Translations under genes and position numbers: made by a program
Shown: positions 17,912-23,994 of the stretch, in pieces
Position numbering within the stretch: position 1 is the first letter of the stretch
How the letters are laid out: every line of letters begins with the position of its first letter
Assembly (NCBI GenBank): GCA_035511075.1
Contig: DATKFW010000108.1
Location: forward strand, 66,085-130,084
DNA length: 64,000 nt
Origin: Vulcanimicrobiaceae bacterium
GTDB taxonomy: Bacteria > Verrucomicrobiota > Verrucomicrobiia > Limisphaerales > Palsa-1400
Direction: 5' to 3'
The notes under the pieces: generated by a model
Told to the model about the DNA's origin: nothing
The model's database searches: none
The model's input: the letters and a program-made list of their open reading frames with translations, nothing else

Positions 17912-19693
17912 CTATTGGCTGATGCGATAGAAGCGAATGGCTCCGTTGGTGGCGGTTGAGACGCTGAATACACCCCCGCTGCCTGTCACGACGGCGCCCG
18001 CCACCGCGGCGTAACCGTTCTGGAGCGCGCTGGAACTCTGCAAGGTAAAGGCCGAAGGGGTCGCCGCGGGTCCGGTAAAATTGATCGTGACAGAGGAGTC
18101 GCTGAGGGTGATTTGGGTAATCTGGAATGGTGTGGCGGTCACGGTCACAGTTATCGCGGCCGTTGCCACTGTGGTATTGGTGTTCGCTCCCGGCGGCGAC
18201 CAGACCCGCCACAAATTCCGCGTGGTGGAGGCGCCGTAGAGATTGCCCACATTGTCCCAAGCCGCGCAGGTATAAGCCTGGCCCCAATCCAGGTTGGTCA
18301 ATGACTGGATGTTCGCGCCGTTGGTGACGGATATAACAGAGCCGTTTGTGGCGTTGAGCACACGAATGCCTCCTCCAGTGCCATTGTCGGCGCCGATCGA
18401 CATGGGGCACGCGACCATGGTTGGATTGAGCCGGGAATTGATCGCAACATCGCGAGCGGCTTCAAAGGCGGGATCGTTGGCGCAAACGGAGTCAACGCCA
18501 CAGCCGTAACCCCACGCCACTTCCCCGGAATTCGTTCCCTCGACATAATTAAAGGCGATGGCGCCGTTTGTGTCGGGGGGAGGAAGGCGGCCGCTGTTCC
18601 AATTGGTGAACACCATGGCGTCATAGACGGCGTCTTCATTGGTCAAATCCTCGCCGATGAATATGTCCAGATTCCTGTCAACCATGCAGCCGCCGGAAGA
18701 ACCCAGGCTAAGGTCAAAGCCGGTCTGCACGACCTGCACGCCGTAGGTGTCATTCGGGTCGGACGCGCCGTTGGTCAGGTGGTACATCCATATTCCCCAG
18801 TTTGGATAATCGTTGTCACAGAGCCAGACGGCGGCGTTGGTGGTGGTCGTCCCGGAGATGTCAAACTCCTGGATGCCGACGGCAAGGTCGGCGTAATCGG
18901 GGTTGTTAAGATAATTATTGACAAAGCCGCCGTTGTCACCGATGACAAGCTGATTGGTAGTGGCCTGCATATCGCATGCGATAATTGCGCCCAAATAACT
19001 GTCATCGACCCAGTAAATCCTGTCATCCTCGCCGATCCGAATCTTCATGGGATCGAGTCCGCCGGCGTCGGGCATTTGATCCGCGACGGGCGCATCGCCG
19101 CCATCGTCGTTTAGATAATTCGCGTTGCCGTACCAACCTTCGTCGGCCTGGCTGCCGTCAGCGTTCATTTTGTAAATACCGGTCATCTGCGCGGCGAGAG
19201 GGAAGTTGGTGTCAGTGCCGCTGTTCGTGGCGCAGCCCATTATGACGCGACCGTAATAGGGGCTGTTGGTATTGTTATCAACGGCGATGCCCAGTGGATC
19301 AAACGCGGGCATGCCGGCATTGGTGTCCACGCTGATTTGCGTCCAATTGGCGAAGCCCGAGGCCGCCGCGGTAATGCTGACGGAATAAGTTCCCGAGGTC
19401 AGGGTGGTGCCAGAACTGTTGGTGACGCCCCACACGACGGTGTTGAGGCCCATGCTGGTTCCGCCGGCAAACGTGGCGACGTTGGTGGCGCCCTGCGAGA
19501 TCGCGACTGTGACGCCCAGAGTGGCAGCCTGATTGAGACGGTAGGTGATCGTCACCGGACCAGCGCCAGCATCGGTAATGCTGGATAAACTGCCGTTGAC
19601 TTTGATATCGGTGGCATAAACATTGGCGCGGGCGCTGAAAGGGGAGAGGAGAATGCCGGCGATGAAACACAAGAGGAATGGAAACGTTTTCAC
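17912..19693 (-). CDS. Secreted FlgD-Ig-like domain protein, paralogue B (C-terminal FYR-ending module)
   Basis: GTG start. Signal peptide MKTFPFLLCFIAGILLSPFSARA. FlgD_ig-like segment [63 protein letters not shown]. Collinear with 20663..22486 over its full length. Confidence 0.8.
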   Translation of the reverse strand: MKTFPFLLCFIAGILLSPFSARANVYATDIKVNGSLSSITDAGAGPVTITYRLNQAATLGVTVAISQGATNVATFAGGTSMGLNTVVWGVTNSSGTTLTSGTYSVSITAAASGFANWTQISVDTNAGMPAFDPLGIAVDNNTNSPYYGRVIMGCATNSGTDTNFPLAAQMTGIYKMNADGSQADEGWYGNANYLNDDGGDAPVADQMPDAGGLDPMKIRIGEDDRIYWVDDSYLGAIIACDMQATTNQLVIGDNGGFVNNYLNNPDYADLAVGIQEFDISGTTTTNAAVWLCDNDYPNWGIWMYHLTNGASDPNDTYGVQVVQTGFDLSLGSSGGCMVDRNLDIFIGEDLTNEDAVYDAMVFTNWNSGRLPPPDTNGAIAFNYVEGTNSGEVAWGYGCGVDSVCANDPAFEAARDVAINSRLNPTMVACPMSIGADNGTGGGIRVLNATNGSVISVTNGANIQSLTNLDWGQAYTCAAWDNVGNLYGASTTRNLWRVWSPPGANTNTTVATAAITVTVTATPFQITQITLSDSSVTINFTGPAATPSAFTLQSSSALQNGYAAVAGAVVTGSGGVFSVSTATNGAIRFYRISQ

Positions 19694-19797
19694 AGGTTTA
19701 GTTCAAATTGAAGGGCTAATGCACCGCATCGAGGCATTCGCGCCTCCTGAAAACTCTTGAACGACGAGCGGACTCTCCACGGGGGGCATTTTACCGC

Positions 19798-19831
19798 AAA
19801 AAACCGGGAACGCAAAACGTTTCTGCCGTTC
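19798..19831 (-). terminator. Putative rho-independent terminator / REP-like hairpin downstream of the 255-aa pilin-like gene
   Basis: Minus strand reads GGAACG-gcagaaacgttttg-CGTTCC then cggTTTTTgcgg. The stem is 19806-19811 paired with 19826-19831, and the T-run corresponds to the plus-strand A-run at 19798-19802. The loop contains the palindrome AAACGTTT. Confidence 0.4.
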
Positions 19832-19848
19832 CAGTCAACCGTCAACGA

Positions 19849-20616
19849 CTACCAGTTAGCGTAGTAGCCGATGTAGGAGGAGGCATAGTGGGATCTCATC
19901 TGTTTGATCGGGACCCAGAGGACGGAGTCGTCGAGATGGCCGACGTTGCCGCCGTCGGCCCCGAGTTTCGTGGGTGTCTCGAGCACGTAGGGCATGCTCT
20001 CGACAATCGATGATCCTTGATTGGAATGATCGTATAGCCCGCCGTTCTTGCGGTGGGGAACGATCACCAGGCCGTCACCCCACATATTCGCGTCGGTCAG
20101 AATGACGTTGGTGCCGTTTTCAGTGGCTTTGGCGGGGGACCACCAGGCATTGGAGTTGGCGTAATCCCAACCATTGGTGTTGACATCACCGCAGTAGTTG
20201 TAACCGATCAGATAGCCCCACTCGGGATCGTAAGGATCAAAGCTGCCAAAGCGGAAATTGGGGCAAAGCAGGATATTCGAGTTGCCGGAGTAGAAGACGA
20301 TATTGGTGAAGGCAATATTGGCAATGCGGATGAGATGCGATTGATCATCATTGTCGCGGCAAGGAGGGAGATTTTGGCTGTTGTCATCGGCGTAAATGAT
20401 TATGGCCAGTATGGCCTGATGCATATTGCTCTTGCAGGCGGTCCGCTGCGCCTCTTCCTTGGCGGAGCTGAGAGCCGGCAAGAGCATCGCCGCCAGGATG
20501 GCGATGACGGCGATGACCACGAGCAACTCGATCAGAGTGAAGGCGCGAATAAATTGCTCTCTTTTGGCGGGCAGATCACAGCATTCCTCGGCGCGCGCGG
20601 CGCCCCGCCATGCCAC
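19849..20616 (-). CDS. Prepilin-type N-terminal cleavage/methylation domain protein (DUF1559-like, degenerate H-X9-DG tail)
   Basis: [31 protein letters not shown] is a class III signal/pilin-like helix. C-terminal [17 protein letters not shown] aligns with the GG-N-x-x-F-x-DGSV end of H-X9-DG proteins but lacks the His and has DD. Starts 46 nt after the stop of paralogue A. Confidence 0.8.
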
Positions 20617-20662
20617 CAGCGCGCGCAGCCTTGTTTCTTGACCTATACGGAATGGTTCAACT

Positions 20663-22486
20663 TTACAAATCGCTTGTCTCTTTAATTTCGTAAAACTGAG
20701 TTGAACAACTCGTGAAGGTCATTTGAATGGCGCCCGAAGTGCCGCTGGAAACCACGCCAATGACAGGGCTATAAGTACCGTTCAAAGTGGACGAGCCTTC
20801 AAGCTCGTATGACGTTCCCACCGGCAGGGTTGTCGTACCGTTAAACGTAATGGTGACGATTGAGCAGCCTCCGGCGATTGGTTCGGCGGATATGCCGGTA
20901 ATCTGCAACGTTGACGATACCGAGCCGAGAACCACTTGCGGCACCGCAACGGTGGTATTGGTATTGGTTCCAGGCGGCGACCAGGCCCTCCATACATTGC
21001 GGGTGGGTGATGCGGCATAGAGGTTGCCCACATTGTCCCACGCCGCGCAGTTGTATTCCTGATTGAAATCCAGGTTGGTAAGACTCTCAGTGACGTCGCC
21101 GCTGAGGTTGGTGACCGTGAGAATGGCGCCTGTTTTGGCGTCAAGCAAACGAATGCCCGAACCATTGGTATCATCGTTGCCCGCTCCCATGGGGCATGCC
21201 ACAATCGTTGGACTTGTTCGAGAGTCAATAACAACGTCCTCAACCTTTTCGAACGTCGGATTGGTGGCGCAAGTGATATCAACGCCACAACCATAGCCCC
21301 ATTCCACATTGTTACTAACGGAGTAATTTAACCCTGTGGCGTCGGCGATGTCAGGAGGCGGAAGGACACCCATGTTCCAATTGGTAAATACCATGGCGTC
21401 ATAAACAGCATTCTCGCCATTCCGGGTTTCTCCAACGAAGATGTCAAGATTTGTATCAACCGTGCAACCGCCCGACGAAACCAAGGCGAGGTCCAACCCT
21501 GTTGCCACAGCCTGGGTCCCGTCGTCGTTGGTAACAGAAGCGCCGTCCGCCATGTGGTACATCATAACTCCCAGATTCGGATAATCAGCGCTACACAACC
21601 AGACTGCGGCATTGGTTGTCTCAGTAGACGTAACGTCAAAATTGATGAAGCCGTAAACGATATCGGCGGCGAGCGGGTTGTCTGCATAACTGTGAGGGCC
21701 GCCAAGTTGGCCGCCAAAAGCCCCGCCATCGTCGAGGACGACCTGATTGGTTGTCACCTGCATATCGAAAGCGACGATCGCGCCTTCCTCACTCCATTCC
21801 AGCATGTAAACCCTGTCATCGCCGCCGATCCTCAGCCTCCAGGGCACAACAAAGGATTGGGGGGGCATCTCGTTGGTAGATAAATTGCCGGCATCGTCCG
21901 AAGTATATCCCCCGTAGCCAAAACCTCCTTCGTCAGCAAAACTGCCGTCGGCATTCAGTTTGTAGAAGCCGTCCTGGATGATCGTGCCCGAGTACGGGTT
22001 GGTGGCCGTGCCGTTGGCGTAAGCGTTGCCCAGAATGACGCGTCCATAATACGGGCTATTGGTGTTATTATCCACCGCGATGCCCTGGGGGAAAAAGGCG
22101 TAATTGCCGGCGTTGGTGTCCACGCTTATTTGCTGCCAATTGGTGAAGCCCGAGGCCGCCGCAGTGATGCTGACGGAATAGGTTCCCGAGGTCAAAGCGG
22201 TGCCCGAACTGTTGGTGACGCCCCACACGACGGTGTTGAGCCCAAAGTTTGTTCCGCCGACAAGGGTGGCCACGCTGGTGGCGCCTTGCCAAATGGAGAC
22301 TGTGACGCCCAGTGTGGCGGCCTGATTGAGACGGTAGGTGATCGTCACCGGACTGGCGCCGGAATCCGTGACGGTGGATAAACTGCCGTTTAATTTGATA
22401 TCGGTGGCATAAACGTTTGCGCGGGCGCTGAACGTGGAGAGGAGGATGCCGGCAACAATAAACGGAAGGAATCGAAGTATTTTCAT
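20663..22486 (-). CDS. Secreted FlgD-Ig-like domain protein, paralogue A
   Basis: Signal peptide [23 protein letters not shown]. The first ~125 aa are nearly identical to paralogue B, with DNA runs identical for 35 nt (19413-19447 = 22206-22240). Shared downstream blocks: NAAVWLC..DYPN.G..MYH and [18 protein letters not shown]. Confidence 0.8.
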
Positions 22487-22544
22487 AGGTTTAATTTAAC
22501 TAAAAACAATTGACTTGCGGCGCGGTTACACCCGAGAAAAAGAA

Positions 22545-22581
22545 GTTGTAACCAAAAACATGAATCGGTGTCAATAGATAA
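22545..22581 (-). promoter_or_regulatory. Putative promoter block containing TTGACA, shared with 23955..23994
   Basis: Minus strand reads ttatctaTTGACAccgattcatgtttttggtTACAAC. The -35 consensus lies at 22569-22574, and a 4/6 -10 candidate follows after 18 nt. It is 83 nt upstream of the paralogue A start. Confidence 0.3.
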
Positions 22582-22585
22582 TTGC

Positions 22586-22615
22586 AAAAAAAATAAAAGC
22601 CGGCAAAAAACCGGC
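22586..22615 (-). terminator. Rho-independent terminator (minus strand)
   Basis: Minus strand reads GCCGG-ttttttg-CCGGC followed by TTTTATTTTTTTT. The stem is 22599-22603 paired with 22611-22615, and the T-tract is the plus-strand A-tract at 22586-22598. It lies between the 329-aa pilin-like gene and paralogue A. Confidence 0.6.
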
Positions 22616-22938
22616 CAGCAGTTTGTTTTTTATTCAGACAATGTTTGGACCCACGGAAGCCGCGAGGGAGATGGCGCGGCTTATCTTGGTTGTGACACTC
22701 ATAAGCGCGCTTCCACCGCAGGGCACCGATAACACATTTGTTGAGCTAAGCATCGGATGTGCCAACGAAGGCAACGGTCCAAAGTTCAAGGCCCAAACTC
22801 GATTTTTTTTTTGCTTTGCGAGGGTAATTCAAACCGCGGAGCCGAAAAGCGAAAAGAACGAAAAACAGCAAAGTGCGCGGTCTTGGCCAGATTGAAAAAA
22901 AATGACCCGCCGGAAAGTTGGTTTTCGACACTCAACCG

Positions 22939-23928
22939 TTAAGTCGATCCGGGAGGCGCGTCTTTTTCACAGCCCGAACGCGGATAGAGCCATACCCAAT
23001 CAGGGTCGGTATCCGTCGTATTGATGTCGCTCCCGCCGGATCTCTTGCCAAAGGAATAAGGAAGATTTGGAAGAATTGGACCTCTCCACGCGTGAGCTTC
23101 AGAATGGCCGTCGCCAAACGAGAAACAGGCTCCGCCAGCATGGTAGTGGGCGGGCGCGTTGGGGAACGCCGGGCCGACCTGCGAAAGGCCGGACATCTGC
23201 ATATAGCCGTCGTCGAGAGTGTACATGGTTTCGTCAGCGAAGATAAACGCGGTGCTGGGAGGCGGACACGTCAAGTCTCCGAGTTTTTGATAGATCCGCA
23301 GGCTGGAAAAGTTAAGTCCGTCCGGAGGTTGATAGAAATTAGCCAAGTACCATTGACCCATTTGACTGTTCATTGAGTAAGAGCGAATTCGGACATCCGT
23401 TTGCCGGTCTTGTTCATTGGCCGATGGGATGGTGTCCCCAGGACACCTGTAAACTCCCACCTGCCCAACCATGTACGGTCCCAAGAGGGCAACTCGAAAT
23501 TTCTCGGTGTTGGTATTGTCGCCACCCTGGGCGTACGCCCAGGATTCGGTGGTTGGGCACCAGGCATTGGCCTGGGTGAGGGTCGGATCGGGCAGGTTTC
23601 CCGGCGCGTTCAAAAGCATGATGTCGTTGAAGTCGCCCGCATACATCACCCAGCCGAGGCCGAGTTGTTTTGTGTTTCCGAGGCACTGGGCCTGCCACGC
23701 CTGCTGCTTGGCTTTCGACAAAGCCGGCAACAGCATTGCGGCGAGAATGGCAATAATGGCAATGACGACCAGCAACTCGATGAGGGTGAAGGCCCCGTTC
23801 CTACGGCCTGTGGGTCCGCGGGCGGCGAGCGACGAATCAATTCGCATACGTAATTCCATCACGAAGCGCCTCAACGCACCGTCAACGGGCGCGAGTTGCA
23901 CGAATCGGTGACACGGCATCAGAATCAA
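22939..23928 (-). CDS. Prepilin-type N-terminal cleavage/methylation domain protein with H-X9-DG C-terminal motif (DUF1559 family)
   Basis: [31 protein letters not shown]. The C-terminal [17 protein letters not shown] is an exact H-x9-D-G. The track start is TTG 23928; ATG 23919 and later Met codons are alternatives. Confidence 0.85.
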
Positions 23929-23954: not shown

Positions 23955-23994
23955 AATAGGTTTAGCTCAAACAACAATCGATGTCAATAGATTA
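23955..23994 (-). promoter_or_regulatory. Putative promoter block containing TTGACA, shared with 22545..22581
   Basis: Minus strand reads taatctaTTGACAtcgattgttgtttgagcTAAACC. The 18-mer atcgRtgtcaatagatWa (plus strand) matches 22564-22581 at 16 of 18. It lies 54-63 nt upstream of the candidate starts. Confidence 0.3.

Follow-up and report, generated by a model that had tools for sequence, protein, structure and literature searches.

Recurrent pairing of pilin-like H-X9-DG genes with predicted secreted propeller proteins in Verrucomicrobiota

We describe here a four-gene locus in which two genes encoding large, predicted secreted proteins (paralogues A and B) are interleaved with two genes encoding small pilin-like proteins (pilin329 and pilin255), as was first pointed out in a preliminary description made from the DNA letters. 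The locus lies on the minus strand of a 64,000-nucleotide stretch of the genome of an uncultured Verrucomicrobiota bacterium from peat or soil (order Limisphaerales in GTDB; filed as Vulcanimicrobiaceae bacterium, assembly GCA_035511075.1, contig DATKFW010000108.1, positions 66,085 to 130,084), which we call the window and to which all coordinates refer. Read along the minus strand, the order is pilin329 (22939..23928; open reading frame (ORF) scan plus Pfam and NCBIfam models), a terminator-like site, paralogue A (20663..22486, 607 aa; ORF scan), pilin255 (19849..20616; ORF scan plus prepilin N-terminal models), a hairpin, and paralogue B (17912..19693, 593 aa; ORF scan); our scan recovers all four genes where the preliminary description had placed them, along with the 46-nt spacer it had given between A and pilin255. 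The locus is a real, fairly compact instance of a gene arrangement that recurs in the Planctomycetes-Verrucomicrobia-Chlamydiae (PVC) group, here with a partner family that is undescribed.

With a spacer of just 46 nt, A and pilin255 are probably co-transcribed, as a single operon ended by a terminator after pilin255. The proposed hairpin at that point (GGAACG...CGTTCC followed by T6, at ~19798..19832, minus strand) is present, but shuffled sequence folds with energies that are just as good (z = 0.03), such that reading it as a terminator is a matter of form. The terminator proposed after pilin329 is borne out by an intrinsic-terminator-like hairpin at 22598..22616 on the minus strand, comprising a 7-pair stem and a T run. 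A search of the whole genome with the 17-mer ATCTATTGACAYCGATT, which includes a perfect TTGACA, places a promoter-like block ahead of both pilin329 (ATCTATTGACATCGATT, 23977..23994, minus) and A (ATCTATTGACACCGATT, 22564..22581, minus, ~80 nt upstream of the gene); these are the only two copies in the 5.7-Mb genome at up to two mismatches, where by our own estimate chance would give ~0.03 matches genome-wide at up to one mismatch. We infer that pilin329 forms a separate transcription unit, with its own terminator and a second copy of the promoter block of A, and that B stands alone. In relatives the pilin329-type genes sit within the operon, whereas here pilin329 stands apart with its copy of the block; the pair of blocks could be a shared promoter or operator, or else the leftover of a rearrangement that separated pilin329 from the operon.

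A second short element, TAAACCT, stands immediately 5' of the start codons of A (22487-22493) and B (19694-19700), and is also found in the leader of pilin329 (~23956-23962). Followed directly by ATG, GTG or TTG, it occurs only six times in the genome, and may be a translation-initiation or leader element.

Judged from their sequences, A and B are exported by Sec and belong to an undescribed family restricted to the phylum. The AlphaFold2 model of A (34 homologues in the alignment; predicted local distance difference test score (pLDDT) 82, predicted template modelling score 0.78) has four parts, all encoded on the minus strand: a signal peptide (residues 1-22), an Ig-like domain (residues 23-125; 22112-22420) with its beta-sandwich at residues 27-114, a six-bladed NHL-like beta-propeller (residues ~126-505; 20972-22111), and a C-terminal tail domain (residues 506-607; 20666-20971), which is a seven-strand beta-sandwich over residues 506-603 and is matched by the tail hidden Markov model (HMM) introduced below. 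The tail of A ends in FY[RE]I, and that of the family in F-Y-[R/E]-[I/L]; B has the same architecture as A, its tail ending in RFYRISQ. The two proteins are collinear, with a measured identity of 58% over 610 columns. The label 'FlgD-Ig' given to them earlier holds as a resemblance, the model of A containing an Ig-like beta-sandwich; the FlgD_ig model itself (PF13860) scores 22.3 bits for A and 24.5 bits for B, both below the Pfam gathering cut-off of 27, and the label is therefore better read as 'FlgD-Ig-like'.

The propeller assignment comes from the AlphaFold2 model and from Foldseek, where matches for the propeller of A extend to E = 8e-6 and include PDB 3hrp (1.7e-9), the NHL domains of teneurins (2.5e-8 to 1e-6) and that of Brat (6e-6, TM-score 0.68 on the target). 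At the sequence level, no Pfam NHL repeat is matched in A or B at E up to 0.1, and a search of PDB sequences with A gave only noise. The best fold match, 3hrp, is a Bacteroides thetaiotaomicron protein of unknown function determined by structural genomics (NP_812590.1; TM-score 0.48 on the target); it comes from another phylum, is only 10% identical to A, and has, to our knowledge, no known tail domain or pilin context. The propeller is probably the ligand-binding body of the protein.

The A family numbers more than 650 proteins, nearly all of them encoded in Verrucomicrobiota/Limisphaerales genomes that were assembled from metagenomes of peat, soil and sediment, and those that carry a name in their source are all hypothetical proteins, bar a few named for an FlgD Ig-like domain or FlgD. 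The source genome itself (5.72 Mb, 98% complete) holds four A-family paralogues. Several contigs that carry genes of this family, itself of Verrucomicrobiota type (for example, at loci L009, L016, L022 and L041), are assigned to genome bins labelled Saccharimonadales, Acidoferrum, Bifidobacteriaceae or Tepidisphaeraceae, and these foreign labels are probably binning or labelling errors in public assemblies.

Both small proteins have, by sequence, a type-IV-pilin-like N-terminus and belong to the expanded DUF1559/H-X9-DG group. Each carries a class III signal, with a short leader, a cleavage site, F-T-L-I-E including Glu5, and a hydrophobic helix, and each passes the models for this region: N_methyl (PF07963) scores 32.5 bits for pilin329 and 24.5 bits for pilin255 against a cut-off of 21.2, and TIGR02532 scores 26.5 and 25.8 bits, respectively, against 16.3. 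The true start of pilin329 is likely to be the ATG at 23859 or 23847, giving a mature N-terminus of (A)FTLIELLVV. The DUF1559 family as such, which is known from Planctomycetota, Verrucomicrobiota and Lentisphaerota and is defined by PF07596 ('SBP_bac_10') together with PF07963, accommodates pilin329 readily, as both cut-offs are passed (PF07596, 29.2 bits against 23.3) and the exact H-X9-DG motif reported earlier is indeed there, at residues 263-274; the source genome also resembles others with this family in holding dozens of paralogues. In contrast, pilin255 falls below the PF07596 cut-off (16.6 bits) and has no intact H-X9-DG, its motif being split and degenerate, so that the earlier assignment of both small proteins to DUF1559 holds for pilin329 but not in full for pilin255. 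The latter is a member of a distinct subfamily of 88 proteins, some with PF07596, in which the canonical H..GG.N..F.DGSV is divided into PH(R/G)K.GG and GGNVG.LDGSV by an insert of 25-35 aa; the protein in the window keeps the first half as PHRKNGG, and has DD where nearly all of its relatives (homologues P0121-P0208) have DG. An AlphaFold2 model of pilin255 (pLDDT 92) shows a helix at residues 28-78, followed by a beta-rich head.

In the source genome, ~66 ORFs carry a prepilin motif (one per 87 kb), and 45-49 of them are of DUF1559 size. Its machinery includes a Peptidase_A24 prepilin peptidase (contig C3), four secretins and at least 12 matches above cut-off to the ATPase of type II secretion systems (T2SS-E); no prepilin peptidase, secretin or T2SS-E gene is found near the window. 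Elsewhere in the window a further prepilin-motif ORF begins at ~53437 on the plus strand (contig position C108:119521; AFSLVELLVVLALL...), continues for ~189 aa past the motif, and is not of the DUF1559 type.

The central result of our analysis is that the pairing of A-family and pilin genes is a conserved, non-random gene module. We surveyed 74 A-family ORFs at 64 loci from other, species-representative genomes, counting any pilin gene on the same strand within 330 nt and taking as background the pilin density of the same loci at more than 2.5 kb from the ORF, from which 0.22 adjacent pilins are expected per side. A pilin lies downstream of 12 of the 74 (p = 2e-17) and upstream of 4 (p = 9e-5); the gene-neighbourhood survey that the preliminary description had called for thus finds the secreted proteins linked to pilin genes far above chance, and the conserved position of the pilin within the A family is downstream, not upstream. 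On a tree of 76 sequences, which takes in A, B, other paralogues and metagenome loci and of which 19 are pilin-adjacent, there are at least ten changes of adjacency state, with adjacency spread over many clades. The interleaved order of A-family gene, pilin and A-family gene itself recurs, at loci L053 and L059, and the nearest relatives of pilin329 are pilins that stand beside A homologues in other genomes, these being closer than any paralogue in the source genome.

Comparison of these loci shows a tail-bearing protein and both types of pilin travelling together, the set being kept through several gene orders. The syntenic locus L071 reads rplT, pheS, a response regulator, three genes (one encoding a GARS-domain protein, one an alanine racemase and one a protein without a Pfam match), a pilin, A, B, aroK and queG, while at L069 the order is A, a pilin, and a pilin255-type gene (85% identity). 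At L092, L102, L104 and L122, a gene for a tail-bearing protein is followed by a pilin329-type gene and then by a pilin255-type gene (81-87%), with the globular part of pilin329 54-56% identical to this middle pilin. Close relatives of pilin255 (81-87%) are, in metagenome loci, the last gene of operons made up of a large protein, a pilin329-type gene and a pilin255-type gene, often with aroK beyond. As a side observation, aroK in relatives directly follows either the pilin255-type gene or B. The large protein in these operons varies: it may belong to the A family, be A-like in its N-terminal third only (26-31%), or run to at least 900 aa with Calx-beta. On the pilin side, 55 metagenome loci with a gene of the pilin255 type were informative; an A-family gene lies directly upstream in only 2 of them, and inspection shows that close relatives usually carry another pilin between the A-family gene and the pilin255-type gene.

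Within the source genome, the predictor of pilin adjacency is the C-terminal tail domain. The same-strand upstream neighbour encodes at least 550 aa for 36% of pilin genes of DUF1559 size, against 11% for other genes, and these neighbours are mostly LamG/Ig, PD40-propeller, DUF1349 or CBM20-like proteins, the majority passing a crude check for a signal peptide. A common C-terminal module of ~60-70 residues, with the consensus ..V.L.W...LQ.S..L...W..V....FYR[LI]..P, is present in 13 of 18 upstream neighbours as well as in A, B and the other two paralogues. An HMM of this tail matches 97 proteins of the genome at the extreme C-terminus and 5 internally, and a regular expression independent of the seed finds it in 170 genes, where control windows placed deeper within the proteins give 10-19; a fibronectin type III (FN3)-like tail ending in F-[YF]-R-[LI]..P thus closes 2-4% of predicted genes, and some two-thirds of these pass the crude signal-peptide check. 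Examples of carriers lie at C3:15402-18461, C60:75891-79664 and C5:14515-18300. No Pfam or NCBIfam model covers the tail in A, B or 18 other carriers. A pilin gene stands directly downstream of 13 of the 170 tail-bearing genes, compared with 26 of the remaining 4322 (odds ratio 13.7, p = 7e-10). When the comparison is restricted to proteins that are 500 aa or longer and pass the crude check, a same-strand pilin is adjacent for 12 of 90 with the tail and 6 of 377 without (odds ratio 9.5, p = 9e-6), and across all such tests in this genome the odds ratio lies between 9.5 and 20. We consider the tail a candidate sorting or anchoring tag.

The tree also bears on the history of the two paralogues. 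A groups with L071:8001-9896, L069 and L005, and B with L071:10398-12200; as each paralogue groups with its own orthologue, the duplication is older than these species, and A and B are old paralogues. Their propellers fit this picture, at 56% identity between A and B, 65-76% between A and its orthologues, 73% between B and its orthologue, and 51% between the L071 paralogues. Over residues 23-150, however, the corresponding figures are 85%, 81%, 77% and 69%, such that A and B are closer to one another than to their orthologues in the N-terminal region only. At the nucleotide level, the two genes are 80-88% identical over codons 1-120 and ~60% beyond, the homogenised tract covering 22127..22486 in A and 19334..19693 in B (both minus strand) and fading by codon 150. 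The exact 35-nt run noticed earlier (19413-19447 = 22206-22240) is real and has a second, 34-nt companion (19527-19560 = 22320-22353), whereas in the other direction similarity breaks off at the start codon, with only TAAACCT in common upstream.

Recent gene conversion of the 5' ends, or selection on them, had been suggested as the cause of this pattern. Among codons for the same amino acid, third positions agree between A and B at 90 of 120 (75%) in codons 1-150 and at 119 of 216 (55%) in the rest (Fisher p = 4e-4), whereas A and its orthologue agree at 61 of 111 over codons 1-150, fewer than A and B do (p = 0.0015). The signal for conversion is thus present, but the event cannot be called recent, because the tract is 83% identical in nucleotides and a quarter of its synonymous third positions differ. 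We rejected purely purifying selection on the N-terminus, since the Ig domain is no more conserved across the A family than the propeller (mean column identity 0.73 against 0.71) and the L071 paralogues are 69% identical there, as against 85% here. The best reading of these comparisons is that the first 120-150 codons have been homogenised by intragenomic gene conversion in this lineage, on top of ordinary constraint.

Published work offers several points of reference. No function is known for DUF1559, of which Planctopirus has 68 paralogues, two being essential (PMC10632474), and genes of this family are often flanked by genes for proteins with signal peptides (PMC8567305). In a Verrucomicrobium, a gene cluster for alginate use holds a PulG-like paralogue, one of 67 homologues in that genome, and a pseudopilin is among the proteins over-expressed on alginate, leading the authors to speculate on type II secretion (PMC13274419). 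In the papers that our full-text searches found, neither the A family nor the tail domain is described, and the pairing of the two kinds of gene is not quantified.

Two better-known systems bear comparison. In type IVa pili, the minor pilins FimU-PilVWX prime assembly of the fibre, at whose tip they carry the propeller protein PilY1; the locus described here is similar in that a propeller protein with a signal peptide shares an operon with small pilin-like proteins (A, then pilin255). It differs in that A and B match no PilY1/PilC model in Pfam or NCBIfam and lack a vWA domain, in that their propeller is six-bladed and NHL-like whereas that of PilY1 is a modified seven-bladed one, and in that the PilY1 operon has four or five pilin genes where there are one or two here, with no pilus machinery genes nearby. 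The parallel with PilY1 is one of resemblance, not membership. The tail, for its part, recalls the C-terminal domain of type IX secretion substrates in Bacteroidota, being likewise a small C-terminal beta-sandwich on ~100-170 otherwise unrelated proteins of one genome; it differs in showing no sequence relation to that domain, in having no Pfam or NCBIfam model, and in a distribution that does not follow DUF1559. We know of no cognate sorting machinery for the tail, and a sorting role for it is put forward here as a hypothesis.

Synthesising these observations, we tentatively propose, at close to an even level of belief, that the region may be a small surface or secretion module in which the pilin-like neighbours assist the export or display of the tail-bearing protein. 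The tail-bearing protein would leave the cytoplasm by Sec and then be handled by its pilin-like neighbours. Processed by the prepilin peptidase that the genome encodes, and assembled by a type II secretion or type IV pilus-like machine, the latter would take their partner through the outer membrane or keep it on the cell surface, in a manner resembling that in which minor pilins carry PilY1.

A number of observations weigh against this proposal. Only about a quarter of A-family genes adjoin a pilin, and two of the four paralogues of the source genome (L003 and L004) have no pilin neighbour. Pilin255-type genes at 50% identity or below mostly have no A-family gene nearby, and near-identical members of the type trail very different proteins. 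Both pilins have Ala, in place of the usual Gly, just ahead of the mature FTLIE, and in Foldseek the model of pilin255 matches no solved structure with E below 1. Specificity between tail subtype and pilin type was looked for in 18 pairs from the source genome and found no support (Mantel r = 0.09, p = 0.16). The tail model and PF07596 are also uncoupled in a sample of 60 genomes from the phylum, with the caveat that the former is short and derived from a single genome and the latter is insensitive: in family f10 the tail is found in 0 of 13 genomes and DUF1559 in 12 of 13, while in family f4 the figures are 7 of 7 and 1 of 7. The tail is therefore not a general docking signal for DUF1559 proteins. 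Side observations from the same survey are that five genomes of families f10 and f17 (G002, G010, G013, G034 and G055) each have 130-270 first-look PF07596 candidates, of which 23-34 were confirmed of 34 scored, and no match to the tail model, and that the small-genome families f4 and f15 have the tail, with few or no confirmed PF07596 matches.

Some of these points also narrow what the pilins could be specific for. The idea of a 'dedicated partner' was dropped, as distant pilin255-type members lack an A-family gene and close ones usually have another pilin in between; the earlier suggestion of a secreted protein dedicated to its pilins fails in particular because pilin255-type genes that are 81-87% identical follow quite different tail-bearing proteins. 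Any specificity is, by the same token, not for the propeller body.

Of the alternatives to an export or display module, adjacency by mere chance has on its side the high copy number of DUF1559 genes, with ~66 prepilin-motif genes in the genome, and the two paralogues out of four that stand without a pilin; yet one prepilin gene per 87 kb amounts to a chance of ~1% per neighbouring slot, the survey of other genomes gave 12 and 4 adjacent pilins where 0.22 were expected on each side, the odds ratio in the source genome is 9.5-20, and orthologous pilins remain beside orthologous partners. We give this explanation almost no credence, and chance is excluded by the adjacency statistics. It is somewhat unlikely, in our view, that the genes are simply co-regulated envelope or substrate-capture neighbours whose products do not touch, with (for example) the pilins forming a general fibre and the propellers being ordinary exoproteins of Sec or type II secretion. 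That the linkage is partial, at ~25% of family members, that one pilin type follows unrelated proteins, that tail similarity and pilin similarity are uncorrelated, and that tail and DUF1559 are phyletically uncoupled would all be expected of such neighbours; the short gaps, the consistent strand and order with the pilin directly downstream, the enrichment that persists after control for size and signal peptide, the trio maintained through several rearrangements, and the promoter block duplicated where pilin329 sits apart all weigh against this reading.

A further explanation, which we judge unlikely, would have the pilin-like proteins act not as fibre subunits but as inner-membrane-anchored (bitopic) periplasmic chaperones, anchors or receptors for their neighbour. 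DUF1559 proteins fractionate with membranes (PMC8567305), both pilins have Ala ahead of the mature N-terminus, their large heads of 190-280 aa match no solved pilin, and the genome has ~66 prepilin-motif genes (45-49 of DUF1559 size) but few machines. The conservation of the N-terminal 25-30 residues as in true pilins, Glu5 included, and the presence of a prepilin peptidase in the genome speak against this, although both are compatible with it too.

Within an export or display module, we may also speculate, as a quite doubtful extension, that the FN3-like F-Y-R tail serves as a tag for export or display, read in this lineage by cargo-associated DUF1559 pseudopilins. Each operon of a tail-bearing protein and its trailing pilin or pilins would then be a self-contained adaptor set for a shared machine of the type II secretion or type IV pilus-like kind; if true, this would provide a first function for the large DUF1559 family and a new route of C-terminal sorting.

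The DUF1559/H-X9-DG proteins form one of the largest function-unknown protein families in Planctomycetota and Verrucomicrobiota, with dozens to hundreds per genome. The present comparisons set limits on ideas of what they do, as no single pilin type has the partner to itself and the tail is no universal DUF1559 signal. The locus also provides a compact experimental case, in which one partner family (with its Ig-like domain, propeller and tail) has two pilin types travelling along with it, and for which relatives supply natural variants, their gene order shifting while the gene set is retained.

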